DNA of 48,552 bases from a virus, in the UHGV virus genome UHGV-0142349; one strand, given 5' to 3'. The position numbers were made by a program, and so were the translations under genes. Under the pieces are notes generated by a model. It was not told the DNA's origin, ran no database searches, and worked only from the letters and a program-made list of their open reading frames with translations. Positions 2,820 through 46,325 of this stretch are shown here, in pieces. Positions within the stretch are counted from its first letter, which is position 1. Each line of letters begins with the position of its first letter.

Positions 2820-3407
2820 ATGGAGGCAATTGCATTGTTTAATCTGATTTATGCAGATCCCCCCTGGGAATACAAAGACAAGTGTAAGGATGGGAATCGT
2901 GGCGCTGGTTTTAAGTATCCAACGATGAAAGCTGAGGATATTGCTCGTATTCCTGTCTGGCAGCTTGCTAATCCTGAATCGTGTTTGTTGGCCATGTGGT
3001 GGGTTCCGACTCAGCCAGAAGAAGCGTTGCTGGTGGTGAAAGCATGGGGATTCAGGCTGATGACCATGAAGGGCTTCACATGGAACAAATGTGGTAGCCG
3101 ACAACCAGATAAGCTGGTGATGGGGATGGGGCATATGACTCGTGCAAACAGTGAAGATTGCTTGTTTGCGGTAAAAGGCAAACTGCCGACCCGCCTTGAT
3201 GCGGGGATCATTCAGTCGTTTACATCGCCTCGTCTGGAGCATTCTCGGAAGCCTGATGTGGTTCGTGACAAGCTGGTAAGGCTGTTAGGTGATGTTCCCC
3301 GTATTGAGCTGTTTGCTCGCGGTGATTTACCTGATGGCTGGCATGGCTGGGGCAACCAGTGCAATGGAGGTATCCAGTTGCATGATGCTCTCTGGCAAGT
3401 GGCATAG
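2820..3407 (+). CDS. MT-A70 family N6-adenine DNA methyltransferase
   Basis: Catalytic DPPW motif in IYADPPWEY context; size and layout typical of phage Dam-like MT-A70 enzymes. Confidence 0.75.
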   Translation: MEAIALFNLIYADPPWEYKDKCKDGNRGAGFKYPTMKAEDIARIPVWQLANPESCLLAMWWVPTQPEEALLVVKAWGFRLMTMKGFTWNKCGSRQPDKLVMGMGHMTRANSEDCLFAVKGKLPTRLDAGIIQSFTSPRLEHSRKPDVVRDKLVRLLGDVPRIELFARGDLPDGWHGWGNQCNGGIQLHDALWQVA

Positions 3408-3519
3408 AATTATATAATTATATATTTATATAAAAATTGCTTTACAGGTGGGAAAAAATTTCCTATGGTTATACCCGAAACCGAGCGATACCCGCCCTGG
3501 CTAAACCGGAGATAACCCG
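3407..3519 (+). promoter_or_regulatory. promoter-leader cassette copy A (AT-rich motif, -35 TTTACA, 17-bp spacer, -10 TATGGT, conserved 5' leader)
   Basis: Near-identical to 35479..35591 and 45065..45180; ends at ATG 3520; GGAGA Shine-Dalgarno. Confidence 0.6.
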
Positions 3520-3789
3520 ATGAAAGTACAAGACCGTGAAGTAGTAAAAAGCCTCCTGCAATACCTGACCTCAAAAAACCTGACGGGCAGCGTTGAGTTC
3601 CGTGAAGCGTTAAAACATTTCAACGTCACTACGGTTTATCGTTGGGAAAACAAACATTCTGAAAGACCGTATGTGGTGGATGTTTTTGCGCCTGATATTG
3701 AGTGCGGTTTTGAGCGCCATTCATTCAAAAAGAAACATTCCGCTGATGTTTTTTGTGAGGTTGTATGTGCGGCAGGAGATGATGAGTGA
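3520..3789 (+). CDS. hypothetical protein (cassette-driven)
   Basis: 89 aa ORF starting right after conserved leader with SD. Confidence 0.5.
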   Translation: MKVQDREVVKSLLQYLTSKNLTGSVEFREALKHFNVTTVYRWENKHSERPYVVDVFAPDIECGFERHSFKKKHSADVFCEVVCAAGDDE

Positions 3790-3986
3790 TGCGTATTTCC
3801 TTCAAACGTGCGACTGAGCAGCAACGCAAAGAGTTCCTGGCTGATGATGTTGCGGCCGTTTATGACCTCATGAAAGAGGTTGTGGAATCAGGGAACTACA
3901 CGGCGGCAAAGATGCTTAAACTGCAATTTTTGCTGGGCGACCTGAAATACAAATCCGAAGTTGTCGCCGGACGACGCGAGCATTAA
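3786..3986 (+). CDS. hypothetical protein
   Basis: 66 aa ORF, start overlaps stop of preceding gene (ATGA), followed by terminator. Confidence 0.4.
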   Translation: MMRISFKRATEQQRKEFLADDVAAVYDLMKEVVESGNYTAAKMLKLQFLLGDLKYKSEVVAGRREH

Positions 3987-4007: not shown

Positions 4008-4036
4008 GAGCCTCGGCAATTGCCGGGGCTTTTTTA
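4008..4036 (+). terminator. rho-independent terminator
   Basis: Hairpin agcctcggcaa/ttgccggggct followed by TTTTTT. Confidence 0.55.
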
Positions 4037-19980: not shown

Positions 19981-22773
19981 ATGGCCAGCAATAAGAACTT
20001 TAAGCTGGCTTTTGAAATTGGCGGCAAAGTTGCCGCCTCTCTCCCCAAAAGTTTTACTACAGCTAATCAGGCTGTTGCTAAATTAAATGCCGAGCTTGCT
20101 GGATTAACGAAAGAACATGGGGAAATTCAAAAGCTACAATCTGTAAAAGTAAAGGTTGGACAGACTGCCCTCGAATATCATAAAGCTGCCGCTCGCGTTG
20201 AAGAGTTACAGAAGCAAATAAAAAACACGGCCAATCCAACCAGAGCGATGCTTCGTGACTTTGAGAAGGCAAAAACACATTCATCGAATTTACGAGCATC
20301 ACTACGTTCTCAGCGTGAAGAACTGGCCGCTTTAAAGTCTGCCTATCAGGGAGCTGATACATCTGCCAGAGCTTTGGCCTCAAGAGAGAAAGAGCTTAAA
20401 GCCAGCATTGATCGTAATCGTGAGGCTCAGGTCCGTAGCGTTGAGCAGGTTAACCGCTACAGAACGGCTTTGGCTTTAGCCAGAGCAAATGTTCAGCAAG
20501 TGAAAAAACAGCAGGAGGAACTTAACCGGGCATTAGAAAAACAACGTATTGATAAAATTAACAGCTATAAAAATGCGTTGGCTGAAGCACGGAAAAATGT
20601 TCTTGCAGTAAAACGTGCTCAGGAGGAGTTAAACCGCGCGTTGGAAAGGCAGCGTGAATTGAAGCGAGAGCATCTTGGTGAGGCAAAGAGTCAACTTGTA
20701 AGGTCAGGATTACAAACTGGTGCTGTAGCGGCTGGTGCATTTGCTGCTGCTAACAATGCAGCAAATTTCAATCGTGAAAACAAAATGATTGGTCTTACGG
20801 CAGATATGAAGCCGGAAGAAGTTCAGGCGATGGGGCAGGCGATGCTTGTTACCGGAACGGCCACCAACCAGTTTGCATCTGATATTCAGGCCGCTCAGGG
20901 TTTTCTCGTCGCTGCTGGGCAGGATTATAAAGAGGCTCAGGCGAATCTACTAACTATTGGGCGAACAGCTACAGCTACTGGCTCTGATATCCTCGATGTC
21001 TCGAAAGCATCATTTACATTAAGTGACTCATTGAAGATTGATCCATCTCAAATGAAGTCTGCAATGGGGATTCTGGTTCAGGCAGGGAAAGAGGGAAACT
21101 TTGAATTTAAAGATATGGCCAAAAATCTTCCTGTGCTTGGTGCTCAGTTCCAGGCATTAAAAATGGGAGGTAAAGAAGCCGCCGCGACGATGGGGGCAGC
21201 TTTGCAGATAGCTCGCAAAGGTGCTGCAACTTCGGATGAGGCTGCTAATAATATGAACAACTTTTTGGCGAAAATACTTTCCCCTGAAACCCTAAAAAAA
21301 GCAAAGAAAAATTTCGGTGTAGATTTATATAAAATTGTCACAACAGCGCAGAAAAAAGGGAAGAATCCATTCGAAGCTGCAATGCATTCTGTCATGAAAA
21401 TGACTAAGAACGGAGATCAGAAGTTACTTGGTGAGCTATTTGGCGATATGCAGGTTCAGAACTTTGTTCGTCCGATGATTCAAAACTGGAAGGAATACCA
21501 GAGAATCAAAGCAACATCTCTTGGTGCTGGAAGTGCTGTTATTGACCGCGATTTTGCCAACATAACGAAAGACAATGCGGAGCGATTGAAACAATTACGT
21601 ATTCAGGCTAGCAATGCATCATTAAGTTTTGGTCAGGCCTTGCAACCTGCTTTGAATGCCGCGCTTAGTGTTTTGGTTCCGCTGATTACAAAAATTAGTG
21701 AATTTGTAGCTAACAACCCCAATTTTGTGTCTCAGATTGTGATGGCGGCAGGTGCGTTTCTAACCATGAAAAGTGTGGTTATAGCGTGTAGGGTAGCTAT
21801 GCTGGCTTTATCTGTAGCGACAAAGCTAACACCCTTCGGGTGGATTCAGATGGCTATATCTGCGCTGGTTGCCGCAGGAATATTGCTCTATCAGAACTGG
21901 GATAAGATCAGAGATTATGCTGTCAGAGTTTGGCCTTCTGTTAAGGAATATACAGTTAAATCGTTTGAAGCTATAAAAAACTTTATCTTAAACTTTGATC
22001 TCAATGGATGGATTATATCTATGTTTGGTAAAGCATGGGATTATCTTTCCAACATAAACTGGAGTTCGGCAGGAGTAAGAATTTACAGTACATTAATTAG
22101 TGCTTTTAAATGGATGTCTCCGCTTCCGTTCTTAATTAAAGCATTTAAACTTACAACAAATTACCTTTCTGGTATTAACTGGAGCGAAACAGGAAAGAAA
22201 ATCATAGATACACTGGTATCTGTTTTTATGCGTTTTTCACCAGTTGGACTCTTTATAAGAGCATTCCAATCTGTAACGGCTTATTTGTCTGGAATAAACT
22301 GGAGTGAGTCAGGCGCAAAAATAATTGAGACGTTAATCACTGGGATAAAATCAAAAGCAAATGCTTTAATTAATGAAGTGAAAGGCGTTTTTTCTTCTGT
22401 ACGTGAGTATTTACCGTTCTCTGACGCGAAAAAAGGTCCATTCTCACAGCTAACAAAGTCAGGTGGTGCAATAATGACTACTCTGGCATCAGGTGTTAGC
22501 AGGAATAACAGCTTACAGAATGCAATAGCAACCAAGTTCGGGCAATCAAATTTATCACCTCACGGGATATCTGCCGCCGGGACTTCTGGACCTCGCCAGA
22601 ACGTTAATGCTGTGACTGGTGGAATAACCTATTCACCTGTAATCAATCTTCCGGCTGGTTCACCAAAGGAAACTGAGGCGGCAGCTAAAAGAGCATTAGA
22701 TGCGGGATATTCTGATTTTGAGAAGAAATTGAGTGCTCATATGTTCCAACAACGGAGATTAAGTTTTGGATGA
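19981..22773 (+). CDS. tail tape measure protein
   Basis: 930 aa, coiled-coil N-terminal part, hydrophobic mid segments. Confidence 0.85.
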   Translation: MASNKNFKLAFEIGGKVAASLPKSFTTANQAVAKLNAELAGLTKEHGEIQKLQSVKVKVGQTALEYHKAAARVEELQKQIKNTANPTRAMLRDFEKAKTHSSNLRASLRSQREELAALKSAYQGADTSARALASREKELKASIDRNREAQVRSVEQVNRYRTALALARANVQQVKKQQEELNRALEKQRIDKINSYKNALAEARKNVLAVKRAQEELNRALERQRELKREHLGEAKSQLVRSGLQTGAVAAGAFAAANNAANFNRENKMIGLTADMKPEEVQAMGQAMLVTGTATNQFASDIQAAQGFLVAAGQDYKEAQANLLTIGRTATATGSDILDVSKASFTLSDSLKIDPSQMKSAMGILVQAGKEGNFEFKDMAKNLPVLGAQFQALKMGGKEAAATMGAALQIARKGAATSDEAANNMNNFLAKILSPETLKKAKKNFGVDLYKIVTTAQKKGKNPFEAAMHSVMKMTKNGDQKLLGELFGDMQVQNFVRPMIQNWKEYQRIKATSLGAGSAVIDRDFANITKDNAERLKQLRIQASNASLSFGQALQPALNAALSVLVPLITKISEFVANNPNFVSQIVMAAGAFLTMKSVVIACRVAMLALSVATKLTPFGWIQMAISALVAAGILLYQNWDKIRDYAVRVWPSVKEYTVKSFEAIKNFILNFDLNGWIISMFGKAWDYLSNINWSSAGVRIYSTLISAFKWMSPLPFLIKAFKLTTNYLSGINWSETGKKIIDTLVSVFMRFSPVGLFIRAFQSVTAYLSGINWSESGAKIIETLITGIKSKANALINEVKGVFSSVREYLPFSDAKKGPFSQLTKSGGAIMTTLASGVSRNNSLQNAIATKFGQSNLSPHGISAAGTSGPRQNVNAVTGGITYSPVINLPAGSPKETEAAAKRALDAGYSDFEKKLSAHMFQQRRLSFG

Positions 22774-27104: not shown

Positions 27105-29483
27105 GTGAGTAAATTATTATTTACGATGACTGACGCCGGGCGTCAGGAGCTGGTTAATGCCAACAAAACAGGAACAAATAAAGTTGAGATTGTTTCTGTT
27201 GGTTTAGGTAGTAGATATTATGTCACGTCAACTTCACAAACAAATATAACAAACGAAATAAAACGACTTACCACAATAGGTGGCAAAGTTGTTTCCCCTG
27301 ATACAATTCATGTAACAGCGAAGGATGATAGTAAAGATGAGTATGTTGTCCATACAATAGGATTGTATACGAATAAGGGTACGTTGTTTGCTGTATACTC
27401 ACAAGAACAAGCAATAATAAATAAAGCATCATCTACTATCGCTTTAATATCAAGTGATATAGCAATTAAAACTCTTGATACTAAAAATATTACATTTGGT
27501 GATATTGAGTTTATTAATCCTCCCGCGACCGAAACTGTTGTTGGGGTGGCAAGATTTGCTAATGAACAAGAAATTGATGCAGGTACAGATGATTCCCTTG
27601 CTGTTTCAGCAAAACGGCTTAAGCAAGCCATTGTGAAACATGAGCAATCACGTAATCATCCTGATGCAACTTTAACCTCAAAAGGTTTTGTTCAACTTAG
27701 CAGCGCCACCAATAGCACGTCTGAAACGCTTGCTGCGACGCCTAAGGCTGTTAAGGCAGCATATGACCTGGCTAATGGCAAATACACCGCACAGGACGCT
27801 ACCACAGCGCGAAAAGGGATTGTTCAGCTCAGTAGTGCCACCAACAGCACGTCTGAAACGCTAGCAGCAACACCAAAGGCTGTTAAGGCAGCGTATGATC
27901 TTGCGGCCGGAAAGGCTCCGTCCAATCACACGCATTCGTGGGAGCAGATAACAAATGTGCCTGTAGCTTCACTGACTGTAAGGGGAATAACTCAGCTCAG
28001 TAGTGCCACCAACAGCACGTCTGAAACACTGGCCGCGACATCGAAAGCTGTAAAGGTGGTAATGGATGAAACGAACAAGAAAGCGCCCCTGAACAGTCCG
28101 GCGCTGACCGGAACACCAACAACACCAACTGCGCCAAAAGGTACTAACAATACTCAGATCGCAAGCACGGCTTATGTTATGGCTGCGATCGCTGCCCTCG
28201 TGGACTCGTCGCCTGACGCGCTGAATACGCTGAACGAGCTGGCTGCGGCGTTGGGCAACGACCCGAATTTTGCGACCACCATGACTAACGCGCTTGCGGG
28301 TAAGCAACCGAAAGATGCCACCCTGACGGCGCTGGCCGGGCTTGCTACTACGGCAGACAGGTTTCCGTATTTTACGGGGAATGATGTCGCCAGCCTGGCA
28401 ACTCTGACAAAAGTCGGGCGGGATATTCTTGCGAAATCGACCGTTGCCGCCGTTATCGAATACCTCGGTTTACAGGAAACGGTAAACAAGGCTGGTAACG
28501 CCGTGCAAAAGACAGGCGATACCTTGTCCGGTGGACTTACTTTTGAAAACGACTCAATCCTTGCCTGGATTCGGAATACTGACTGGGCAAAGATTGGATT
28601 TAAAAATGATGCCGACAGCGACACTGATTCATACATGTGGTTTGAAACAGGCGACAACGGCAATGAATATTTCAAATGGAGAAGCAAACAAAGCACCACA
28701 ACAAAAGACCTGATGAATCTTAAATGGGATGCTTTGTATGTTCTTGTCAATGCCATTGTAAATGGCGAAGTCATATCAAAATCAGCAAACGGCCTACGTA
28801 TTGCTTATGGTAATTACGGATTCTTTATTCGTAATGATGGTTCAAATACATACTTCATGTTGACAAACTCCGGTGACAACATGGGGACTTATAACGGATT
28901 AAGGCCATTATGGATTAATAACGCTACTGGCGCTGTTTCGATGGGGCGTGGCCTTAATGTTTCAGGGGAGACACTTTCAGACCGTTTTGCTATTAACAGC
29001 AGTAATGGTATGTGGATTCAGATGCGCGATAACAACGCTATCTTTGGGAAAAATATAGTTAACACTGATAGCGCTCAGGCGTTGCTTCGCCAGAATCACG
29101 CCGACCGAAAGTTCATGATAGGTGGACTGGGGAACAAGCAATTTGGCATCTACATGATTAATAACTCAAGGACAGCCAATGGCACCGATGGTCAGGCGTA
29201 CATGGATAATAACGGGAACTGGCTTTGCGGCTCGCAAGTTATTCCCGGAAACTATGGCAATTTTGACTCCAGATATGTGAAAGATGTTCGACTTGGTTCA
29301 CAGCAATATTATGGAGTGAACAACTGGCAAACATGGAATTTCCAGTGCCCGTCAGGTCATGTATTGTCTGGTATTAATGTTCAGGATACAGGGTCCAACT
29401 CTGCCGATAATATAGCGGGCGTTTATTACAGACCCGTTCAAAAGTATATAAATGGCACCTGGTATAATGTAGCGAGCGTTTAA
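27105..29483 (+). CDS. tail fiber protein (constant N-terminal part plus invertible C-terminal part)
   Basis: 792 aa; three tandem copies of [19 protein letters not shown] motif; crossover repeat at 28462..28490 inside the gene. Confidence 0.8.
27688..28065 (+). repeat. three ~80-bp direct repeats inside tail fiber gene
   Basis: Repeated nucleotide blocks at about 27688-27772, 27820-27900, 27985-28065. Confidence 0.7.
28462..28490. repeat. left inverted repeat (crossover site) of invertible segment
   Basis: ACCTCGGTTTACAGGAAACGGTAAACAAG; reverse complement matches 31505..31533 with 2 mismatches. Confidence 0.75.
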
Positions 29484-29484
29484 T

Positions 29485-30012
29485 ATGATGCACTTAAAGA
29501 ACATAAAAGCGGGTAACGCTAAAACACTGGAACAGTATGAGTTAACAAAGAAACACGGAGTTATCTGGCTTTACTCTGAGGACGGAAAAAACTGGTATGA
29601 GGAAGTGAAAAACTTTCAGTCAGACACAATAAAGATTGTTTACGATGCAAATAATATTATTGTCGCCATCACTAAAGATGCCTCCACGCTTAACCCTGAA
29701 GGTTTTAGCGTCGTTGAGGTTCCAGATATTACAGCCAACCGCCGCGCTGATGATTCAGGAAAGTGGATGTTTAAGGATGGAGCTGTAGTTAAACGGATTT
29801 ATACGGCAGACGAACAGCAACAACAAGCCGAATCACAAAAGGCCGCATTGCTTTCCGAAGCTGAATCAGTCATCCAGCCGCTGGAACGCGCTGTCAGGCT
29901 GAATATGGCAACAGACGAGGAACGCACACGACTGGAAACATGGGAACGCTACAGTGTTCTGGTCAGCCGTGTGGATACGGCAAATCCTGAATGGCCACAA
30001 AAGCCTGAGTAA
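29485..30012 (+). CDS. tail fiber assembly protein (current orientation)
   Basis: 175 aa; paralog of 30041..30574 on opposite strand. Confidence 0.7.
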
Positions 30013-30040: not shown

Positions 30041-30574
30041 TCATTCTGGTTGTTCGGGAAACGTTACTGGCAGGCTGGAGGTGTCTGTGGATTCGACTTT
30101 CTGCGCGTAGAGCATCCACTCGGTTAATTTTTGTTTATTCTCGTCGGAAATGATGCCCAGCCGTAGCTGTGAGTCCCATAGCTGGGTTTTATCCCTGACA
30201 AGTTGCAACAGGCTTTGCTTTTCATTCTCTGCCTGCTGCCTCTGTTCCTCCTCGGTATAAGTTCGCTTTATCACTACGCCATCTTTGAACATCCATTTAC
30301 CCGAAATATCAGCCCGGCGATTTGCTGTAATATCAGGTAATTCAACGACGCTTGCGCCTTCTGGATTAATTGCTGAAACATCCTTTTCAATACAAATAAT
30401 AACGCCGTTGTGGTCATAGACCATTTTCAACGTATCAGGCTGAAAGTTCTTTTGTTCCTCATACCAGTTTTCCCCATCCTCTGTATAAAGCCATTTGATG
30501 TTAAATTGTTTCGTTAGCTGGTATTGCTCTTTTGTTTTAGGGTTGCCAGCAGTAATATTTTTTAAGTGCATCAT
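30041..30574 (-). CDS. tail fiber assembly protein (alternative)
   Basis: 177 aa, same N-terminal MMHLKNI.AGN motif as 29485..30012 product. Confidence 0.7.
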   Translation of the reverse strand: MMHLKNITAGNPKTKEQYQLTKQFNIKWLYTEDGENWYEEQKNFQPDTLKMVYDHNGVIICIEKDVSAINPEGASVVELPDITANRRADISGKWMFKDGVVIKRTYTEEEQRQQAENEKQSLLQLVRDKTQLWDSQLRLGIISDENKQKLTEWMLYAQKVESTDTSSLPVTFPEQPE

Positions 30575-30576
30575 AA

Positions 30577-31524
30577 TTAAATACTCCCCGCGTTATACCA
30601 CGTTCCATTAATGCAATACTGAATTGGCCTTGCCTGAGTTGTATCAATTAATTCATCACGGTTTCCGTTAACTGACCCCGTAACGACATAACCTGACCTG
30701 TCAGACCAGCCGGGACCATTCCATGTCTGAACAGATGACAGACCGCCAAGACGAATACCTGTAATAAACCTTGAGTTACATTCTGCCTGCGTATATGCAC
30801 CAACATCTCCCGCTGATGGCTTACGTGTTGTGGTGTAAATTTCTGACCAGTCAGCTTCGAATCCGTAACCATCACGCGCTGAACGATAAAAAATACCGCC
30901 GTTCCTGTAATTCACACGGAACTGTACGGCAGGGCAACTCCCCGTATTCATATTGAAGTGGAGGATTAATGTCGATGCGCCACCAATATTTGCGTTATAG
31001 ACCCCGCTATTCCAGTTCCAGCCAACAGCTTTATCATTTCCGACAGTGCTTCCTGTTTGCCCTAAAGCAAATGCAGGCTGCTGGTTTTTCGTGTTGTAGT
31101 CTCGTCGCCAGCCAGGAGCATAAGCATCACCATGATTAATATAAGTGAATTGAGCGTTAGTGATTCCGCCACCGCTGGAAGTGCTCGGGGTGGTTACACG
31201 GATGGTCATGGCTCCTTTATTACCCATAACCTCAATAACGCAACCTGCAAGATGAATAGTTCCACAGCCAGTATCGGTAATAATTTTATTATTGCCGTAT
31301 GACCATGAACATTTGCACATCCAGTATGGGTGATTGAATGCCCCTTGAGAATCAAGCCATTCAATCAATTGTGCCGTTGTCCAGTTCCCTGCCCCTGTAC
31401 TAATAGCACTGTGAAAAGCACGACATGCACCAATATTTTTTGTGAAGGTATCTTTTCCAGGAATATCTGCGCCGTTCTGGTTTTTCTGTAATGCGCCAGA
31501 AGCCTTGTTTATCGTTTCCTGCAA
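30577..31524 (-). CDS. alternative tail fiber C-terminal segment
   Basis: N-terminus (M)QETINKASG parallels LQETVNKAG at crossover in the expressed fiber; likely continues into the right repeat with no own start. Confidence 0.65.
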   Translation of the reverse strand: MQETINKASGALQKNQNGADIPGKDTFTKNIGACRAFHSAISTGAGNWTTAQLIEWLDSQGAFNHPYWMCKCSWSYGNNKIITDTGCGTIHLAGCVIEVMGNKGAMTIRVTTPSTSSGGGITNAQFTYINHGDAYAPGWRRDYNTKNQQPAFALGQTGSTVGNDKAVGWNWNSGVYNANIGGASTLILHFNMNTGSCPAVQFRVNYRNGGIFYRSARDGYGFEADWSEIYTTTRKPSAGDVGAYTQAECNSRFITGIRLGGLSSVQTWNGPGWSDRSGYVVTGSVNGNRDELIDTTQARPIQYCINGTWYNAGSI

Positions 31525-31605: not shown

Positions 31606-32160
31606 ATGCAATATGGTTATGCGAGGGTGTCAACTTTTGACCAGAATTTGGAATTACAACTGGAGGCGCTCAGGAGTTCAGGATGTGACCGGATTTTTGA
31701 AGATAAAATATCCGGTGCTAAATCAAAACGACCAGGGCTTGATAAGCTACTGAAGGTGTTACGGCCGGGCGATACGGTTATTGTCTGGAAGCTGGATCGA
31801 ATGGGGCGTTCTCTGATTCATCTTGTTGATTTACTTAACCATTTTTTATCAAACAACATTGAGTTTATTTCGATTACGGAAGGGATAAAAATTAGCACTT
31901 CAATTGGCCGCTTTGCCTACACGATGCTGAGTGCAGTCGCAGAGATGGAGCGGGAAAATATGATTGAAAGAACGCGTGCAGGATTGGCGGTGGCAAGGGC
32001 TAATGGCAGGATAGGAGGACGCCGCTCAAAATTGGCCCCAGAGCAATGGGAACAGATCGGAAGGCTTATTGCGAATGGTGTTTCACGTAAGCGGATAGCG
32101 ATTATCTTCGATGTTACCTTATCCACGCTTTACCGCAGGTTTCCGGCTGGGAATCATTGA
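31606..32160 (+). CDS. serine recombinase, DNA invertase (Gin/Hin/Pin/Cin family)
   Basis: N-terminal YARVSTFDQNLELQ with catalytic Ser; small size with C-terminal HTH; adjacent to invertible segment. Confidence 0.85.
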   Translation: MQYGYARVSTFDQNLELQLEALRSSGCDRIFEDKISGAKSKRPGLDKLLKVLRPGDTVIVWKLDRMGRSLIHLVDLLNHFLSNNIEFISITEGIKISTSIGRFAYTMLSAVAEMERENMIERTRAGLAVARANGRIGGRRSKLAPEQWEQIGRLIANGVSRKRIAIIFDVTLSTLYRRFPAGNH

Positions 32161-32341: not shown

Positions 32342-33319
32342 ATGGAAACAAAAAGCCCGCAGATAAATCTGCGGGCTTCTTGCGACATCCACGGAAAACC
32401 AACAATTAACCATGGGCGCCTCGACAACTCCCATTATACGTTGGTTTTCCGTGGACGCAAGAGCGAACATATGGATAGACCAATGCCGTCTCTACGTTCA
32501 GCTTACGTTTGTAATTTGTCGCCGGAGTTCCAGCCTCCAAAGCACCATACGCACAAGCTGCCGCTGGTGTTATCTGATGCTTTACAGCGCATTAATGGTC
32601 GTGATCTTACGTGTGAGGTTGCGTTCTACGTTAATCAACCGTCAGAGCGGAAACGCCGGATAAACGAGCATCGTCGTCGGGCGATTAATGCTGTGATTGC
32701 TGCGATTTTGCACCATGTAAACATCATTTCTAAGCGGGTTCTGGCCAGTGCTGAGGCGTTGGCTGATTTTTGCGGTCTGTCTACCGTATCCGAAGCTGGG
32801 AACAAGTCTATAACGCGCTGTACAAGGGCGTTGTCGCAACTGAAAGCGTTAGGTTTTATTGATTATGAACGTCGCTGGGATCGGGTGAATAAACAGTATT
32901 GGCCAGCGAAAATAGAGATTCGTGATCAACTGCTGGAAACCGTTGGTATTACTGAACAAGCATGGAGACGTGCGGTTAGCCAGAAACTTAATTACTTCAA
33001 TGCGAAGAATAGCGAACGGCTTAAAAAAGCGATAACGGAGGCTGATTATAAGCGTATTGTTATTCAGGAGCAGATGGAGAATGTATGGCGTCAGAGGAAG
33101 ACGGCCAGAGAGATAAAGGCAAAACAGAAAGCAGCGGAGAGAGCTGCGCGTCTTGTTCGGGAAAAGGGAGAGGCCGAACTTCGTCATCAAATCACTAGAG
33201 AGGTTAGCCAGGAATTTGCTGATGGCATGTATCCTGGAGCTGACCTTGCATATTTACGATCCCTCGTTGAGCAGCGTTATAACAGGTTAAGAAAGACTTG
33301 GAAATCACTCCAACATTAA
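32342..33319 (+). CDS. repA: plasmid replication initiator RepA (IncFII RepA1-like)
   Basis: Segment SITRCTRALSQLKALGFIDYE resembles IncFII RepA1; basic C-terminus; real start may be internal ATG 32471 downstream of leader stem-loops. Confidence 0.65.
   Translation: METKSPQINLRASCDIHGKPTINHGRLDNSHYTLVFRGRKSEHMDRPMPSLRSAYVCNLSPEFQPPKHHTHKLPLVLSDALQRINGRDLTCEVAFYVNQPSERKRRINEHRRRAINAVIAAILHHVNIISKRVLASAEALADFCGLSTVSEAGNKSITRCTRALSQLKALGFIDYERRWDRVNKQYWPAKIEIRDQLLETVGITEQAWRRAVSQKLNYFNAKNSERLKKAITEADYKRIVIQEQMENVWRQRKTAREIKAKQKAAERAARLVREKGEAELRHQITREVSQEFADGMYPGADLAYLRSLVEQRYNRLRKTWKSLQH
32346..32455 (-). ncRNA. putative CopA-like antisense RNA in repA leader
   Basis: On minus strand: 15-bp-stem hairpin (32389..32454) then hairpin 32355..32376 followed by TTTTTGTTT. 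Confidence 0.35.
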
Positions 33320-33600: not shown

Positions 33601-33950
33601 GCAGCGAGCTAAAGCTCGCGCCGGTTCGAGTCGCTACGCTCAAATATACCTCCTCCGGCACTTGCCGGAGGCATGGAGCAGCCTGATCATCCTTTTCGAA
33701 ACGGCGCGTTTCGAACTATACAAAATCAATTTATATAAGGCCGAAATAAGGCCTACGGCCGGGCTTTGCAGGAGGAAGGGGCGAGCCTTATCAATAAACG
33801 TCGATAAATACGCACACAGTAGCCATCAGAACGCGATAAAACGTAAGAAACATCATGTCCTATTAGACATAGAAAACTTGTCTTATACGCAATGTAGTAA
33901 ATTTCTATTGCCACATAGGAAAAGATTTCCTACCATCGTAGATATAATAA

Positions 33951-34250
33951 ATGGAGATGGTTATGGATAAAGATACTGTTTTAAAAATGTTGAATCCGGC
34001 TTGTTTAAAAAAAGCGGATGAATGGGAATCTCCTACATGTGGAGAAGTTCGGGCAGTCATTGGCCTGACCGGAATGAGCGGCTCGCAGTTGGCCAAAAAA
34101 CTAGGCTTAAAAGATAGTCGCAATGTTCGCAACTGGCAGATGTTAAAGGAGTCCACATCCAGATCCAGCATTCCGTATGCAGCCTGGGCGCTGCTGTGTT
34201 ACTTCGCTGGGTTAGGGTTAATCTTCATTGATAACAAAACAGATGTTTGA
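33951..34250 (+). CDS. hypothetical HTH-containing protein
   Basis: 99 aa; GLTGMSGSQLAKKLGL resembles an HTH. Confidence 0.35.
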   Translation: MEMVMDKDTVLKMLNPACLKKADEWESPTCGEVRAVIGLTGMSGSQLAKKLGLKDSRNVRNWQMLKESTSRSSIPYAAWALLCYFAGLGLIFIDNKTDV

Positions 34251-34537: not shown

Positions 34538-34781
34538 GGCTTTCGCGTCGAAAATGAGGCGAAACTGAAAACGAGATTTCATTAACAAATAAGCAACATA
34601 AAAAACGGTGGAAAACGCCCAGGAAAACATGATCTTTTGAGCGGATTTTTTAGATCCGACAATGAACGGTGATCCGGTGGTGCCGATAACGTCCATTATG
34701 TTAAATAGCCCCGTTTTTCTTGAAATTATAACTCACAGGTTATATAGTTAGTGATATAAACTACAGGTTATAGGATTGAGC

Positions 34782-35129
34782 ATGTGGACGGTACTTTTTA
34801 GCCAGCGATTTGACGACTGGCTAAATGAGCAAGAAGACGCTCTTCAGGAAAAGGTTTTGGCTGATTTGAAAAAGCTACAGGTTTACGGACCTGAGTTACC
34901 TAGGCCATATGCCGATACCGTAAAAGGTTCTCGGTACAAAAATATGAAAGAGCTTCGCGTTCAGTTTTCTGGCCGTCCGATAAGAGCCTTTTATGCGTTC
35001 GATCCGATTCGCCGGGCCATCGTTCTTTGTGCAGGAGACAAAAGTAACGATAAGCGGTTTTATGAAAAACTGGTGCGTATAGCTGAGGATGAGTTTGCAG
35101 CACATCTGAACACACTGGAGAGCAAGTAA
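34782..35129 (+). CDS. type II toxin, RelE/ParE superfamily (HigB/Gp49-like)
   Basis: Gp49-like pattern (ELR..., RAFYAFDPIRRAIVLCAGDK..RFY); precedes and overlaps an XRE-HTH gene; start at ATG 34782 (track uses TTG 34776). Confidence 0.65.
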   Translation: MWTVLFSQRFDDWLNEQEDALQEKVLADLKKLQVYGPELPRPYADTVKGSRYKNMKELRVQFSGRPIRAFYAFDPIRRAIVLCAGDKSNDKRFYEKLVRIAEDEFAAHLNTLESK

Positions 35130-35428
35130 TGAGAACATTAGATGAGGCGATTGCCAGCCGTTCACCGGAAAGCCAGGCGCGAATTAAAGAAATGGCAGAT
35201 GAGATGATTCTTGAGGTCGGCTTGCAGATGATGCGTGAAGAACTCCAGTTATCACAAAAACAGGTTGCTGAGGCGATGGGTATAAGCCAGCCAGCAGTAA
35301 CAAAGCTGGAGCAGCGCGGAAATGATTTAAAGCTGGCGACATTAAAGCGTTACGTTGAAGCTATGGGAGGCAAATTAAGCCTGGATGTTGAGCTTCCCAC
35401 AGGAAAACGAATAGCGTTTAACATCTGA
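35129..35428 (+). CDS. XRE-family HTH antitoxin (HigA-like)
   Basis: HTH LSQKQVAEAMGISQPAVTKLE; start overlaps toxin stop (TAATG). Confidence 0.65.
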   Translation: MRTLDEAIASRSPESQARIKEMADEMILEVGLQMMREELQLSQKQVAEAMGISQPAVTKLEQRGNDLKLATLKRYVEAMGGKLSLDVELPTGKRIAFNI

Positions 35429-35443
35429 TCAGAACGAATGATA

Positions 35444-35470
35444 AGCCCCTGTTGCAAAGGGGCTTTTTTG
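35444..35470 (+). terminator. rho-independent terminator
   Basis: agcccct-gttgcaa-aggggct then TTTTTT. Confidence 0.6.
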
Positions 35471-35478
35471 TGCTCACA

Positions 35479-35591
35479 GAATTATATAATTATAGATTTA
35501 TATAAAAAGTGCTTTACATGTGGGAAAAAATTTCCTAAGGTTATACCCGAAACCGAGCGATACCCGCCCTGGTTAAACCGGAGATAACCCG
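35479..35591 (+). promoter_or_regulatory. promoter-leader cassette copy B
   Basis: Near-identical to copies at 3407 and 45065; -35 TTTACA, -10 TAAGGT, conserved leader with GGAGA SD. Confidence 0.6.
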
Positions 35592-35972
35592 ATGAGCATG
35601 ATTAAAATCCGCAAAAACGCTTTCCTTAAAATTCAAACTATCCTGGCTGGTTCTGTTGGCGTGATTTGCCGTTCTTCCTCAAGCCGCATCGATGACTGCT
35701 ACGATGATGAGTATCGTGTGTCCTCATGCGATGAGGCTTTAACCTGGCTGAAGGAGAATCAGGAACGTGCCCAGGTATATCTGGAAACAGAGAACGGCAA
35801 TCAGATGCTGCGTATTAGCGGTCGTTATGGATTTGAAACTACATTCATGGCCTATTTTAATCAGGCTTACTTTGACAAGGAGTTGGCCTGGTACACTGAT
35901 CGCATGAGCAAAAGCGAGCCAGCCCCGATTACACCGCCGAACAATAAACCATTTTTATTCCTCGTTAAGTAA
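35592..35972 (+). CDS. hypothetical protein (cassette-driven)
   Basis: 126 aa ORF. Confidence 0.5.
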   Translation: MSMIKIRKNAFLKIQTILAGSVGVICRSSSSRIDDCYDDEYRVSSCDEALTWLKENQERAQVYLETENGNQMLRISGRYGFETTFMAYFNQAYFDKELAWYTDRMSKSEPAPITPPNNKPFLFLVK

Positions 35973-35979
35973 ACACAAT

Positions 35980-36008
35980 GCGCAAAGTGTCATTTTGACA
36001 CTTTGCGC
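35980..36008. repeat. perfect palindrome (13-bp arms, 3-bp spacer) GCGCAAAGTGTCA-TTT-TGACACTTTGCGC
   Basis: Seen directly; AAAGTGTCATTTTGA half also at 45010..45024. Confidence 0.6.
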
Positions 36009-37683: not shown

Positions 37684-38952
37684 TTATGGTCTGCTTTTCT
37701 GTGCCAGCTTATCAGCACATGTTTTTATCAGATCCTGTAGTGTCCTGGCTGGCAGGTTTGCATCCAGAACGCTGAGTATGCTGTTGTGATCAGCCTGGTC
37801 GACTACTTTGCCTGTCGGTGGTAGTAGCTTGAGCTGAGGATTCAGGTCCTCGTCAAAGCTGATAAGTGCTCTGGCGTTCCTGAGCAGATCAAGAAGTAAG
37901 GCTGATATCACATTTTCCTGAGTCATTGCTGGCAGACTTAGCGCCGCTTTAGTTTTCTCCGTCGCCTTGTCAAACTCTTTGATTAGTGTCTTGCGGTAGT
38001 TCGGTTCCGTTAATAGCCGATTATGCTCTGTTGCCGCGCGGATAATCGTTTTTTCTTGGTACAGTCGTTTAGCCAGATCACGCTCGTACTGTGTTTTTAA
38101 CACGCTGCTGATAGCGTTAAAGGCTTCAATGTAGGCCAGCTTGATATCTTTTACGCCTGGACCGTCGATGCTCTCCATGAGCAAGGTAAATCCGTCTTTT
38201 GTCATGCGATAGATTGTTATTTCGCGGTCGCTTCCTTCCAACGGTCGTTGCTCTTTAAAGAAATGACGCGCCGCAGCTGTGCGAGGAATGCGTAACGCAT
38301 CGATGGCCATAACGATGGAATTGTTTGTGGTGCTGAATGCCTGGGCAACATCGGCCGAGGTTGTGAGTGGCTCGTTATTGCACACCTTAATGTAAAACAT
38401 CGGTTTGGCGTTGAGCGTATCGACAACCTCACGAGCATTGTTTGGCGAGACGGTTACGGTCGCGGCCGTTTGCGCGTTCTGGTTGAAGTAGCAGTCTTCC
38501 AGCCGTTCGAACACATCCCACGCTTGGTTAGTTTCAAGCATTTTGGCGTGACGTGCAGCCCCGCGTTCTGTCCAGAGAATGAGGGAGCGAACGTTACGGG
38601 CGATTTTCACAGAGTGACTTTTAGTTACCTTGTGGTTAACAGAGTAGTTTAAAACTACTCTGTGCTCGTCGCTCTCTCTTTTAGAGGGGGCGTCATTAAC
38701 TGAATCTCTTAAAGAGTTTTTGTTCTTCACATCATTATCTTGAGTCACTTTGTGCTTTAACTCTCGAAGTTCGTTACCTTCAATTTTGAAGTAGTGCTTA
38801 CCTTCAATGAAGCGTTCCTTATTCTCATGATGATTTTGTCGAATGCGTACAGGAGATACGCCGTAAAGCTGTGCCAGTAACTCGGTAGTAATGACAGGGA
38901 TTTGGTTATGCAGGATAGGCTGTAGGGTGTTAACGGTCGGAAGCGTTTTCAT
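37684..38952 (-). CDS. antirepressor (KilA-N/ORF6N-like N-domain, Ant-like)
   Basis: 422 aa; N-terminal ITTELLAQLYGVSPVRIRQNHHENKERFIEGKHYFKIEGNELRELK resembles ORF6N/KilA-N. Confidence 0.65.
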   Translation of the reverse strand: MKTLPTVNTLQPILHNQIPVITTELLAQLYGVSPVRIRQNHHENKERFIEGKHYFKIEGNELRELKHKVTQDNDVKNKNSLRDSVNDAPSKRESDEHRVVLNYSVNHKVTKSHSVKIARNVRSLILWTERGAARHAKMLETNQAWDVFERLEDCYFNQNAQTAATVTVSPNNAREVVDTLNAKPMFYIKVCNNEPLTTSADVAQAFSTTNNSIVMAIDALRIPRTAAARHFFKEQRPLEGSDREITIYRMTKDGFTLLMESIDGPGVKDIKLAYIEAFNAISSVLKTQYERDLAKRLYQEKTIIRAATEHNRLLTEPNYRKTLIKEFDKATEKTKAALSLPAMTQENVISALLLDLLRNARALISFDEDLNPQLKLLPPTGKVVDQADHNSILSVLDANLPARTLQDLIKTCADKLAQKSRP

Positions 38953-39176: not shown

Positions 39177-39435
39177 TCGAGGCTAATCAAATGGTGGTGA
39201 GCCGTACAGGGTTAGCCTTACCGGACACAATGACGAACCGGCGCGGATTTCTCCGCCCCTGTACGACCCACCATAATTTGGGCGTAACAGTGCTCTACGC
39301 ATAAAAAAACCGCTAACGCGGTATGCGCCATCGTGTTATTCAGGAGGCTAATCCCGACCGTAGATTTTGCTACGGCTCGGAAAGTGTCCACCAATGGCGC
39401 ATTCATGTCAATACGGCGGGATTTTAACAGAGACA

Positions 39436-39498: not shown

Positions 39499-39893
39499 TT
39501 CGTGCTGATCGGATTCGCGGTCCTTTCAGCATTACGTTGTTGTATAAACAACCACGCAAGCACAAGCAGCAAATTGATTTTACTCAAAAGGTAATAATAG
39601 TCCACTATTATACATCAAAAAATTGTGGTTCTTGTTGTGTCAGCAAACTCACAGATTGTGGGTAGGTTACTGATTTTGTGAAAATAAACTGTTTTTTTCG
39701 TTTAATTTCTTTCCTATTACTAATCTTAAAATAATCGTAAAATACCTGTGGACCTTCCCGCCGATTCGCACCCGGGCACCGACTTTAGGGGAGGATTTCC
39801 TGTTGCCGTACATGCAAGCACAAGCAGCCGTGCTTGCTCTCGCGTTGTTTTCGTCGGTGGGGATGCCGTGAAACGGCCTGTAAGGGCCATACA

Positions 39894-40016
39894 ATGAAAA
39901 AATACTGTATGTGTATTTTTATCGTTGTTACTGGAGCTTTGTTTACGCCACATGGGGAGGGTTGGAAGATTACTGATAACGCTCTGAATGTGACGATAAA
40001 CATTAGCAGCAAGTAG
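39894..40016 (+). CDS. small hydrophobic protein (40 aa), candidate type I toxin-like peptide
   Basis: MKKYCMCIFIVVTGALFTPHGEGWKITDNALNVTINISSK; followed by terminator at 40022..40045. Confidence 0.3.
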   Translation: MKKYCMCIFIVVTGALFTPHGEGWKITDNALNVTINISSK

Positions 40017-40021
40017 CGATT

Positions 40022-40045
40022 AGGCCCCTTCGGGGGCCTTTTTTA
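40022..40045 (+). terminator. rho-independent terminator
   Basis: ggcccc-ttcg-ggggcc then TTTTTT. Confidence 0.65.
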
Positions 40046-40266: not shown

Positions 40267-40515
40267 TTACTTCTGGTTGTATTGAGCCTTGAGTAACTCA
40301 AAAGATTTTGTCAGCACTTCTTTCAATGACATATCCATTGAGCTGGCGAACGTTTTGTACTCGCGTTTAAATTCAGGGTCGACGTTAAACGCCATTTGTG
40401 CCCCACCTGATTTGGTTCTGGCTGGCGTTTCAGTCGGGTCGAAAACCTGCGGTTGTTCGATCGATGGCGGTACGCCTTTGCTGTTCTTCTTTGGTGGTTT
40501 TGATGGTGCGGCCAT
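40267..40515 (-). CDS. partition protein, ParG-like (ribbon-helix-helix centromere-binding)
   Basis: 82 aa, basic flexible N-terminus, directly downstream of ParA-like ATPase gene (type Ib layout). Confidence 0.5.
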   Translation of the reverse strand: MAAPSKPPKKNSKGVPPSIEQPQVFDPTETPARTKSGGAQMAFNVDPEFKREYKTFASSMDMSLKEVLTKSFELLKAQYNQK

Positions 40516-40527: not shown

Positions 40528-40563
40528 TTATATAAATCTATAAAACTATAATTATATATTACG
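40528..40563. repeat. AT-rich near-palindromic motif copy
   Basis: TTATATAAATCTATAAAACTATAATTATATATTAC. Confidence 0.5.
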
Positions 40564-41212
40564 CGGCAGTAGTCAGAGCCTCAAGCTGGTTGATAATCCC
40601 CTGAATAACGTCGTCTGCCTTTTTGCGTGGCGCAACGTATGAGCATTCAATGAGGCTTAAGCCCTTATCCTGAGCTTTGCTCAGAGCTGGCTTGTGGGGA
40701 ATGTACTTATCGACAACAAAGTATGGCGTATTAGCCAGGTACTCTTGGGCTTCAATGTAGTCGGCTTCGTTTTCAGCCGCGCCTGAGAACACCATGCAAA
40801 TTTTCTTGATTGGCACACCCTTTTTAACGATGCCATGAGCTGTGTTAACGGTGGTTTCCAGGTCATCGGTAGAGAATCTGGTTGGCAAAATAACCATATC
40901 CAGAAATTCAGAGAGCTTCGGTACTGATTCAGATGCGTAGGCACCGCCATCGACGATAACCAGGTCGTATACTTCTGATTCGATGATTTTCTGGACTTGT
41001 GATGGCGTGCCGCACGGCTGCGCCGCGATTGCAGGTTCGATATTGTTGGCCATTCTGCGTTGTACCCAACGCGTTACCGTTCCGTTAAGCACATCCATAT
41101 CGATCAGGCATACATTCCAGCCGGCCTTTGCATAAGCAACTGCTAAAGCACGGGCAATTGTTGATTTGGTTACGCCGCCTTTTCCGTTGAAAATACCTAC
41201 AGAGATAGTCAT
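40559..41212 (-). CDS. partition ATPase ParA (small ParA/ParF-like, Walker type)
   Basis: Deviant Walker A GKGGVTKST; start at ATG 41212 (SD GGAG upstream) rather than track start 41227. Confidence 0.7.
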   Translation of the reverse strand: MTISVGIFNGKGGVTKSTIARALAVAYAKAGWNVCLIDMDVLNGTVTRWVQRRMANNIEPAIAAQPCGTPSQVQKIIESEVYDLVIVDGGAYASESVPKLSEFLDMVILPTRFSTDDLETTVNTAHGIVKKGVPIKKICMVFSGAAENEADYIEAQEYLANTPYFVVDKYIPHKPALSKAQDKGLSLIECSYVAPRKKADDVIQGIINQLEALTTAA

Positions 41213-41235
41213 TTGTCGAGACTCCATGTGTTTGG

Positions 41236-41340
41236 TTATATAATTATATAAATCTATATTTATAGAACGAGGTAAGCATAACCAACTTTTTGGCGGATGA
41301 AAAGCGTTTTATATAATTATATAAATCTATAATCATATAA
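41236..41340. repeat. two direct copies of AT-rich motif upstream of parA (candidate centromere/operator)
   Basis: TTATATAATTATATAAATCTATA at 41236-41258 and 41308-41330. Confidence 0.55.
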
Positions 41341-41829: not shown

Positions 41830-42486
41830 TCATAACCAGTTGACAACACTAACTACGCGGCCAAGAACTTTATAACGCTTAAATTCCTCGTTATTCAGAT
41901 GCTTAGTGTTCATTTCAGCATCCCTTTCGGTTGACAGCATAACAGCATTGTCACCCGGTATGACTCTACAGTGCCTCAAAACAACCAGGCCATTTCTGTC
42001 TTCAAGGGCATAGATCCCCTCATGAATCTCTGTATCGTCTGTATCAATCAGGACTTGGGAGCCAGGGGATATTGTTGGTGACATTAACTCATCGTTGCTC
42101 TGGAGAACTGACAGAGACGATGGGTTGATGTTCTTGCTTCGTAGAATCTCCTGTTCTATCGCCAGCACTGGCTTTTCTCCGGCGTGCGATGCTATGTCAT
42201 TTTTTATAGCTACAAGCCCAGGAATAACAGGAGCGTTAGTATTCTGGGGTGGGAACGGGTTATCTGTTAAGCACGCGATATAAGGCGCTGATGCTTTCAG
42301 GGCGTGCGCGATTTTCTTGATGGCAGGTATAGATGGTTGTCTTAATCCGGCCTCATAGTTCTGCAAGGTGCTTAAGCCTATTCCAGTGACTTGCTGGAGA
42401 TCTCCGGCAGTCATGCCGGATTGTTTCCGTAGAGTCTGAATGCGCAGACCTATTTCTTTCTTGATGTTCTCGTCGTTGCTTTTCAT
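41830..42486 (-). CDS. CI-like repressor (N-terminal HTH, C-terminal S24/LexA-like peptidase domain)
   Basis: HTH in the N-terminal part and an S24-like C-terminal domain; divergent from Cro-like gene. Confidence 0.75.
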   Translation of the reverse strand: MKSNDENIKKEIGLRIQTLRKQSGMTAGDLQQVTGIGLSTLQNYEAGLRQPSIPAIKKIAHALKASAPYIACLTDNPFPPQNTNAPVIPGLVAIKNDIASHAGEKPVLAIEQEILRSKNINPSSLSVLQSNDELMSPTISPGSQVLIDTDDTEIHEGIYALEDRNGLVVLRHCRVIPGDNAVMLSTERDAEMNTKHLNNEEFKRYKVLGRVVSVVNWL

Positions 42487-42523
42487 GTCTCATCAATCGT
42501 GAATGGTGGGTTATTTATACATT

Positions 42524-42641
42524 ACCACATTTAGTGGTTTTCACATGGTAAGACGAGAGGTGGACCACAAATAGAAGGTTATTTTTTGTTTCGCCCATTG
42601 AAAAACTCACGATATGTGGTTTTAATACCACATATCGTGGT
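42524..42641. promoter_or_regulatory. operator region with inverted-repeat sites (CCACAT-N3-GTGG type)
   Basis: ACCACATTTAGTGGT (42524-42538); CACGATATGTGG (42608-42619) and CCACATATCGTGG (42628-42640) form a larger palindrome. Confidence 0.55.
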
Positions 42642-42660
42642 TTTAACTGGAGTTCGTTAA

Positions 42661-45011: not shown

Positions 45012-45064
45012 AAGTGTCATTTTGAGCTGTTTTGATGGTGTGTAGACATCGGGAACATCGAAAA

Positions 45065-46312: not shown

Positions 46313-46325
46313 GGACGCCTCGACA

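Follow-up and report, generated by a model that had tools for sequence, protein, structure and literature searches.

Why should one promoter and its leader stand, almost letter for letter, before three genes without mutual similarity? The question is raised by the 48,552-nt viral genome UHGV-0142349, the whole of which is referred to below as the window. The window represents a plasmid-prophage (phage-plasmid) with an IncFII-type RepA (32342-33319), a type Ib ParA, a LexA-like CI and a myovirus structural block. A preliminary description of this DNA had noticed a near-identical block immediately before ATG 3520, ATG 35592 and ATG 45181, and had read it as one promoter and leader reused before unrelated genes in different modules, that is, as a small regulon. 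Our analysis supports this reading and enlarges the regulon. We consider it probable that each block is a self-contained expression cassette, in which a sigma-70 promoter is repressed by two plasmid proteins and followed by a fixed 5' untranslated region (5' UTR).

The three copies, called cassettes A, B and C here, are direct repeats on the plus strand, located at 3402-3519, 35474-35591 and 45064-45180 (a repeat finder and MAFFT placed the bounds at 3403-3523, 35475-35595 and 45065-45185). They are 92-96% identical pairwise over 112-113 nt, and each terminates at its start codon. Their products, of 89, 126 and 355 aa, belong to different PHROGs and showed no similarity to one another by blastp at E<=10. 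An 18-nt core of the leader occurs exactly three times in the window, compared with 0.04 occurrences expected in shuffled sequences.

The promoter parts were found as first described: a -35 element TTTACA, a 17-bp spacer, a -10 element that reads TATGGT in copy A and TAAGGT in copies B and C, and a GGAGA Shine-Dalgarno (SD) sequence, separated from the ATG by 7 nt in copies A and B and by 6 nt in copy C. The spacer is GGTGGGAAAAAATTTCC in copies A and C and begins TGTGGG in copy B. Upstream of the -35 element, at approximately -40 to -45, lies an A5 tract that is kept in all lineages, and a promoter scan detected copy A with its TTTACA, 17-bp spacer and TATGGT. Two further details had to be revised. 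The AT-rich segment is present, yet in place of the near-palindrome we found a tandem array of four 8-bp units, TTATAKAW, the last of which ends 7 nt before the -35 element. The ACCCG repeats of the leader, counted as three, lack the third in copy C and read ACCAG and AGTCG in the Salmonella relative; they are not the conserved feature, and we rejected ACCCG as a motif because of this lack of conservation in Salmonella.

In cassette A, the array spans 3402-3433, the -35 element 3441-3446, the candidate operator 3449-3465 and the -10 element 3464-3469, followed by a predicted start at ~3476-3478, a leader hairpin at 3479-3502 and the SD sequence at 3508-3512. The same parts of cassette B lie at 35474-35505, 35513-35518, 35521-35537 and 35536-35541, with a predicted start at ~35548-35550, the hairpin at 35551-35574 and the SD sequence at 35580-35584. 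In cassette C, the array, -35 element, operator and -10 element occupy 45064-45095, 45103-45108, 45111-45127 and 45126-45131, and the hairpin and SD sequence 45141-45164 and 45170-45174.

Could the blocks be the ends of a mobile element, or an assembly duplication, the two alternatives named at the outset? The hallmarks of a mobile element (terminal inverted repeats, target duplications, variable orientation, copy-specific presence) were absent from the block, whose orientation is constant and whose three positions recur unchanged in dozens of complete plasmids and phages. The Yersinia phages vB_YpM_39, 41 and 44 are near-identical to the window and contain the block in the same three copies. 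Among 66 PLSDB records of ~48-kb non-mobilizable plasmids that match the window, 63 carry a near-complete block, most of them in three copies. Seventy-four of 5426 complete E. coli genomes are carriers, among them E. coli ATCC 25922 (copy of the element 48.4-48.5 kb), with a median of 3 places per genome, and 214 of the 217 places are plasmid-borne. Both alternatives are excluded because the same three positions recur across plasmids, phages and E. coli genomes. As for the family to which the window belongs, the pSLy3 phage-plasmid group was rejected, pSLy3 sitting in the ~100-kb SSU5 supergroup, as was vB_YpM_HQ103, an unrelated 32-kb phage.

For comparison, we collected more distant relatives: the Salmonella Weltevreden plasmid NZ_LN890526 (ParA 96% identical), Serratia marcescens p2 (CP083756; ParA 54%), and further IMG/VR contigs anchored on ParA and on the helix-turn-helix (HTH) protein described below. 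Cassettes were present in every lineage, 2-4 or more in each, and their parts always follow one order: AT-rich array, A5 tract, -35 element, 17-bp spacer with a palindrome, -10 element, hairpin, GGAGA or AGAGA, and ATG. The -35 element varies between TTTACA, TTGCAT and TTGCAG and the -10 element between TAWGGT, TATTAT and TAATAT, while their positions on either side of the 17-bp spacer are retained down to 52-56% ParA identity even as the flanks vary. In a comparison of E. coli with Salmonella, identity is 85-88% for the cassettes and 62-69% for the adjacent coding DNA.

Within one genome, the cassettes are 92-98% identical, and the substitutions specific to a lineage are common to all its copies. 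Such shared substitutions point to concerted evolution and hence to gene conversion between sites 10-32 kb apart. This raises the question of whether the blocks are mainly recombination linkers, comparable to PeSLs, and owe their conservation to gene conversion and module shuffling. The copies of one genome are indeed closer to each other than orthologous copies are between genomes, the loci hold 2-4 modules whose gene families differ by lineage, and the PeSLs provide a precedent (PMC2839356). Shuffling would, however, leave unexplained why the -35 and -10 elements, the palindrome, the hairpin pairs and the SD sequence are conserved position by position at ~60-70% cassette identity, and also why the arrays vary together with the par locus. 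We consider a role mainly as linkers improbable, while noting that the regulatory and the linker role are compatible.

The relation between the arrays and the partition locus is the first line of evidence for the two-repressor cassette. ParA (40559-41227, minus strand; 222 aa) is a Walker ATPase matching Pfam CbiA/ParA/MipZ and PHROG 164, and its small size and lack of an N-terminal HTH place it in type Ib. The parA promoter region (41236-41340, minus strand) holds two arrays of four units, at 41309-41340 and 41236-41267, with a putative -35 TTTTCA and -10 TATGCT between them, and a third array (40528-40559, minus strand) lies between parA and the downstream gene for a small ParB-like protein of 82 aa (40267-40515, minus strand), which is our candidate for the centromere-binding protein and array binder. 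With a weight matrix built solely from the 12 units of the par locus, the window yielded exactly 8 arrays (4 x 8 bp each) at 32-43 bits; nothing else scored above 14, and 100 Markov shuffles, used as the null, reached at most 15.5. The cassettes account for three of the five arrays found beyond the par locus; the other two are at 2255-2286 before a tRNA-Met gene and at 46281-46312 (plus strand) directly upstream of the open reading frame (ORF) 46326-46607.

The array units before tRNA-Met (2425-2497) extend over 2255-2294; ~130 bp separate them from the tRNA gene, and no clear promoter was identified in between. At 46260-46330, a GC hairpin is followed by the array and then by a ribosome-binding region, GGACGCCTCGACAATG, which closely resembles that of parA (GGAGTCTCGACAAATG). 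The product of ORF 46326-46607 has weak winged-HTH matches.

Comparison across genomes strengthened the link between cassettes and partition. Three types of array can be distinguished. That of E. coli and Salmonella is TTATAKAW, Serratia and L139 have WWTCTTTA/AATTAAAG, and L134-L138 have GATATAAA/TATATMTT/TATATCAA. In each genome, the arrays of the par locus and of the cassettes are of the same type. The matrix of shared 8-mers is dominated by its diagonal, each cassette sharing 16-22 words with its own par locus; within an array-type group 10-26 words are shared per cassette, and across groups 0-12. The putative β-strand of the small ParB-like protein, which reads MAFNV/MSFNV, MNFNV or LLLRL/LLLQL, follows the same three-way grouping. 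The protein itself consists of a basic, disordered N-terminal half, the segment GG-x-Q-MAFNVDPEF and two helices, a layout that matches the pattern of ParG- and omega-type ribbon-helix-helix (RHH) centromere-binding proteins, of which it is a putative member. These comparisons suggest that the 82-aa protein binds the 8-bp arrays. A cassette fragment (array and -35 element, 2501-2548) truncated by IS26 was also seen in L161 (NZ_CP140467.1), a non-phage 27.7-kb cfr plasmid, where it adjoins a related pair of ParA and small protein and a RelE/HTH toxin-antitoxin pair.

AT-rich repeats next to a promoter could instead be UP elements, curved DNA or targets of silencing by host H-NS. AT-rich DNA is a typical H-NS target, and the conserved A5 tract at ~-40 to -45 resembles a proximal UP subsite. 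The strict 8-bp period and the fixed number of exactly four units do not fit this explanation, nor do arrays where no promoter follows, as in the stretch that separates parA from its partner gene and also downstream of the promoter of parA. Moreover, the three array types switch together with the par locus and the ParB-like protein. We therefore regard such a general role of AT-rich DNA as very improbable.

The second putative operator, overlooked by the preliminary description, is an inverted repeat TAGGA-N7-TCCTA that fills the 17-bp spacer and overlaps the -10 element. In E. coli the spacer reads TGGGAAAAAATTTCCTA; that of Salmonella, TAGGAAAATATTTCCTA, is a perfect palindrome, and in both the final TA doubles as the start of the -10 hexamer. 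The pattern TRGGAAA-N3-TTTCCTA gave four palindromic sites in the window (8 hits on both strands, with 0.79 expected), and the additional site disclosed a fourth promoter. In this promoter (33908-33936, plus strand; TTGCCA, 17 bp, TACCAT), the same register is occupied at 33916-33932 by a perfect palindrome, TAGGAAAAGATTTCCTA; array and hairpin are both missing, and an ORF of 95-99 aa follows at 33951-34250 (plus strand; ATG 33963, behind GGAGA, is the likelier start). With this palindrome-only promoter and the five further arrays, the regulon extends beyond the three promoters first proposed.

The 95-99-aa ORF encodes an HTH protein and is our candidate gene for the second repressor. Searched against the PDB, its profile matched the Aca-type HTH domain of AcrIF24 (E 1.4e-6), Aca1 and Aca3 following at ~0.6 and HipB weakly; the motif shared with AcrIF24 is W-x-x-PT...R.V...G.SG..AA..LG....N.R......I.FAAW. 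A homologue is present in every lineage, always behind a palindrome-bearing promoter, which is palindrome-only in E. coli, Salmonella, Serratia and L139 and a full cassette, with one ORF intervening, in L134-L138. An equivalent palindrome was found in four Serratia promoters and in every cassette of the other lineages; it reads TAGGTC-N5-GACCTA in L139 and TAGGA-N7-TCCTA elsewhere. The inverted repeat is the best operator candidate, and the Aca-type HTH protein would bind it. The HTH gene would then be autoregulated, because its own promoter bears the spacer operator.

Other DNA-binding proteins of the element were poorer candidates for this site: the HigA-like antitoxin and a 90-aa HTH protein, which are not conserved across lineages, and CI, which has its own operators. 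The last point also bears on whether the cassettes might be ordinary early lytic promoters under a CI-type prophage repressor. A LexA-like CI (41830-42486, minus strand) is encoded, and dispersed repressor operators exist in phage P1. The region of CI and its divergent promoters, however, contains a different palindrome, ATATGTGGT-N6-ACCACATAT, and neither the 8-bp arrays nor TAGGA-N7-TCCTA, so that we give hardly any credence to control by CI. The operators in this region (42487-42660), unrelated to those of the cassettes, include the perfect palindrome ATATGTGGTTTTAATACCACATAT at ~42612-42635.

The third constant part of the cassette is the leader. RNAfold predicted the same bulged hairpin in every leader variant, with an outer stem of 4-5 bp, one unpaired 5' purine, an inner stem of 3 bp, a 5-nt loop and two unpaired 3' bases. 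The hairpin is AACCG-A-GCG[AUACC]CGC-CC-UGGUU in E. coli, GGCC-G-GGC[AUACC]GCC-AG-GGCC in Serratia, GGCC-G-GAC[ACAAC]GUC-AA-GGCC in L134-138 and GACC-G-AGC[AAUCU]GCU-AA-GGUC in L139. Across 17 distinct variants the geometry is fixed, and the hairpin begins 9-11 nt past the -10 element, that is, at ~+3 if transcription starts 7 nt downstream. In the alignment, 97.5% of the cells are paired, with two-sided changes in 4 of the 7 pairs and G-U tolerated, compared with 12-42% pairing in controls where the partner was slid by 1-3 columns. The sequence of the loop varies freely.

As negative controls, we used 69 unrelated loci from a permissive scan of genome contigs with the pattern TCCTANNNTN{25,45}AAACCGGAGA, which returned 120 chance loci in unrelated taxa. 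A covariance model of the hairpin gave 27 hits at E<=1, all of them at phage-plasmid loci and on the sense strand, and none in the 69 unrelated loci. No Rfam family matched the leader, even at E<=10. The covarying hairpin of this 5' UTR is uncatalogued. The preliminary description had pointed to control at the RNA level, which the conserved and covarying hairpin bears out in part; control looks mainly DNA-level, through two types of operator, with an RNA layer on top.

We also looked for RNA partners of the leader. A search for an antisense partner elsewhere on the element gave only chance-level 9-11-mers, all within coding DNA. Duplexes of the leader with the C4 and ryfA RNAs of the element had the same energy as those of a shuffled leader; isrK scored ~2.6 standard deviations better than shuffled sequence and was nevertheless rejected as an unconvincing interaction. 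The SD sequence is unpaired in the E. coli-type leader. In the cassettes of L134-L138 and L003 (for example L137, 12986-13057), 6-8 nt between the -10 element and the hairpin are complementary to the SD region: CUACUCAU, CUUUUCAU and AUCUCU face AUGAGGAG, AUGAAGAG and GGAGAU, respectively. These anti-SD bases probably lie upstream of the transcription start, so the SD sequence would be masked only in read-through transcripts, and translation would depend on the promoter used.

What might recognize the hairpin? One answer is the Aca-type HTH protein itself, acting on both DNA and RNA in the manner of Aca2 and Aca1, which reportedly bind structured 5' UTR motifs besides the inverted repeats of their promoters (PMC13551039); every cassette gene would then be silenced in translation as well as in transcription. 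The bulges, of 1 nt on the 5' side and 2 nt on the 3' side, are strictly conserved, which suggests recognition and not mere stability, and in L134-L138 the inner stem GGAC-N5-GUC echoes the operator core GGAC-N5-GTC. This resemblance is missing in E. coli, Serratia and L139, however, the SD sequence lies outside the hairpin, and the promoter of the E. coli-type HTH gene has no hairpin. Dual repression by one protein thus appears unlikely to us.

The genes behind the cassettes provide a further view of their function. Cassette A precedes ORFs 3520-3789 and 3786-3986 (66 aa), which overlap and are followed by a strong terminator at 4008-4031. The 126-aa ORF of cassette B (35592-35972) is preceded by a terminator at 35443-35465 and followed by a 13-bp hairpin at 35980-36008 and a convergent gene, and the DUF3560 ORF of cassette C (45181-46248) by a GC hairpin at 46260-46279. 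All of these ORFs are on the plus strand. By their sequence organization the modules are moron-like and insulated, with terminator-like hairpins as their bounds. The 126-aa family stands behind a cassette in E. coli/Salmonella and in L134-L138 and was not detected in Serratia or L139; its structural model is confident and has no fold match. The 126-aa protein lacks a structural match and, in both of the lineage groups that encode it, has its gene behind a cassette, which makes it a candidate establishment or anti-defence factor. In the relatives, the other genes behind cassettes belong to families of 103 aa and of 80-86 aa, to DUF1391 and to others, none of known function.

The same arrangement can be read differently, with the leader hairpin as a processive antitermination element (nut/boxB, put of HK022 or conAn of pLS20). 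The transcripts of cassettes A and C would then read through the terminators into the lysis, packaging, head and tail genes, and the true promoters of lytic or late transcription would be those in the cassettes. Some ~37 kb of plus-strand genes are co-oriented with cassettes A and C, the terminator-like hairpins after the first genes would need overriding, systems of this kind typically have a conserved RNA structure close to the promoter, and conAn-type control of plasmid establishment genes has precedent. Several observations oppose this reading. A convergent gene begins only ~100 bp past the ORF of cassette B, and the 3-4 cassettes of the relatives are spaced 650-770 bp apart, each with its own small gene, leaving nothing to antiterminate. 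The leader forms one hairpin of 22-24 nt, not the two stem-loops of put; the Rfam covariance models detected neither boxA plus boxB nor the two-stem-loop put RNA in it, no boxA was seen by eye, and the loop is free to vary. We judge antitermination quite improbable.

From the anatomy, conservation, covariation and genomic linkage described above, we infer which protein pairs with which site, where transcription starts, when the cassettes would be active and what the hairpin may do. The core would be a constitutive sigma-70 promoter (TTTACA, 17 bp, TAWGGT, with the A5 tract upstream) joined to an optimised leader. The 82-aa ParB-like protein would bind the four contiguous 8-bp repeats abutting the -35 element and repress transcription, as omega of pSM19035 does, and the Aca-type HTH protein would repress from the spacer palindrome, its own gene included. 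Transcription would start ~7 nt past the -10 element, giving a messenger that opens with the bulged hairpin at ~+3, followed by an unpaired, strong SD sequence and the ATG. The most likely role for the hairpin is to stabilise the message or to adjust translation, and it may possibly be a site for protein binding. High expression is predicted on entry into a cell without the two repressors, or on their titration, and repression once the plasmid is established. Such a burst followed by shut-off is predicted because both repressors are made by the element itself.

Several results weigh against this mechanism. The -10 element TAAGGT of copies B and C has only 3 of 6 consensus bases and falls under the threshold of the promoter scan, and copy A weakens one pair of the hairpin. 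Compared with shuffles, the folding energy of the predicted E. coli transcript, -9.6 kcal/mol, is only modestly lower (z -2.3). Conservation among the copies of one genome could be inflated by concerted evolution. None of the known anti-CRISPR or anti-defence genes was found behind the cassettes, although co-encoding with such a gene is expected of an Aca protein. Most of the remaining points concern the 82-aa protein: its AlphaFold2 monomer has a predicted local distance difference test score of 66, with a disordered tail, an extended segment and helices at 47-59 and 62-80; Foldseek found no match for this model; hhalign placed the protein in register with ParG at E 1.3e-3 and a probability of 18%; and Pfam HicB matched the family weakly (2 of 9 members, E 0.003). 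Direct evidence for this putative RHH fold is weak; the comparative evidence, which concerns the pairing of the protein with the arrays, is better. The arrays could also have another binder, such as the product of a 124-aa ORF upstream of parA. Profile matches of the ParB-like protein in the PDB, to designer PPR proteins, were rejected as low-complexity artefacts.

The mechanism can be extended, with considerable doubt, to an entry-burst regulon of anti-defence or establishment proteins in a widespread family of phage-plasmids, gated jointly by the centromere-binding protein and by an Aca-type HTH protein that also recognises the hairpin, with the eight arrays acting as multiple centromeres. 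If this extension is true, the leader would represent a new family of cis-regulatory RNA, and the segregation status of the plasmid would be coupled directly to the expression of accessory genes. The cassette suggests promoters common to a partition protein and an Aca-type repressor, and the combination of array, TAGGA-N7-TCCTA and hairpin offers a sequence signature by which co-regulated small genes can be recognised. Accessory and resistance genes are commonly carried by phage-plasmids, whose regulatory wiring is, to our knowledge, almost unknown outside P1 and N15. Residence of the element in ATCC 25922 makes the predictions directly testable.

Further features of the element deserve mention. 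An MT-A70 methylase is encoded at 2820-3407, just upstream of cassette A. Downstream of this cassette and past its terminator, the segment 5395-7391 encodes a ParB/Srx-domain protein and, after it, a methyltransferase of 459 aa, a pairing typically seen in regions for anti-restriction or establishment. The genes of a Gp49/HigB-like toxin and an HTH antitoxin form a pair at 34776-35428, directly before cassette B, in place of which the Serratia relative has HicAB. The window also encodes an Ant/Rha antirepressor, next to whose gene Rfam models placed the C4 antisense RNA, isrK and ryfA; this region (39190-39376, minus strand; 39748-40044, plus strand; 37684-38952, minus strand) looks like a second immunity module of the P1/P7 immI kind.

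A DNA invertase of the serine type adjoins inverted repeats of 71-80 nt that flank alternative tail-fibre and assembly genes (29479-29645 / 30414-30580, 31606-32160), and this invertible tail-fibre segment is a host-range switch of the Mu G / P1 C type. Two ORFs contain in-frame tandem repeats: a 792-aa tail-fibre ORF with a 93-nt segment repeated three times at start spacings of 132 and 168 nt (27680-28072), and a 930-aa tape-measure-like ORF with units of a 120-nt period (22038-22322).

How does the cassette relate to systems already known? It is not a demonstrated member of the omega/parS, Aca, CUP or PeSL systems, and a repeated phage-plasmid block that combines arrays of the partition type with an Aca-type operator and a covarying leader hairpin appears to have no earlier description in the literature surveyed. 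The closest parallel for the arrays is pSM19035, where the parS sites bound by the RHH ParB protein omega consist of contiguous 7-bp repeats, overlap the promoters of copS, delta and omega, and need at least 4 repeats in a row for function (PMC9499535). In common with omega/parS and ParG/parH, the element encodes a small ParA and, after it, a small putative centromere-binding protein, and short repeats occur in uninterrupted runs of four or more at dispersed promoters; by analogy, one protein could be both partition adaptor and global repressor. The units here are of 8 bp (TTATAKAW) instead of 7-bp WATCACW, and the host element is a myovirus phage-plasmid of Enterobacterales. Unlike in omega/parS, the arrays precede accessory genes, the promoters add a second operator and a conserved leader, and the RHH protein is putative.

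For the spacer operator, the comparison is with Aca proteins, which are reported to repress strong promoters via inverted repeats at the -35 and -10 elements and to control several operons, Aca2 and Aca1 also binding structured RNA motifs in 5' UTRs (PMC13551039). The common traits are a small AcrIF24-like HTH protein, an inverted repeat at the core promoter, a regulator gene behind the candidate operator, recurrence of this operator at several operons and a structured motif in the 5' UTR. Unlike in Aca operons, none of the known acr genes is present, the operons lie scattered over 48 kb instead of side by side, the hairpin of the RNA and the inverted repeat of the DNA are distinct and mostly dissimilar, and there is a probable tie to the partition system.

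The repetition of one control block before unrelated plasmid genes recalls the CUP (conserved upstream) elements of the IncN plasmid pKM101 with ArdK, described as a conserved promoter and repressor-site block before several unrelated establishment genes (PMC6289460, citing Delver and Belogurov 1997). We saw neither an ArdK homologue nor a sequence relation to CUP, although no search was aimed at either; unlike CUP, the cassettes belong to a phage-plasmid and not to a conjugative leading region, and they add an RNA hairpin and partition-type repeats. The PeSLs of T4-type phages are likewise blocks of promoter and stem-loop that flank small variable ORFs and are linked to module shuffling (PMC2839356, PMC4122927). 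There, a terminator stem-loop lies upstream of the promoter and no repressor sites have been described, whereas the cassettes have a hairpin in the 5' UTR and two types of operator; no sequence relation between the two was seen.

With regard to the leader, the 5' UTR of ompA also has a 5'-terminal, stabilising stem-loop. The cassette hairpin resembles it in lying ~2-4 nt from the predicted 5' end and in being followed by an accessible SD sequence. Unlike end protection of the ompA type, the conserved bulges of the cassette hairpin suggest a more specific recognition.

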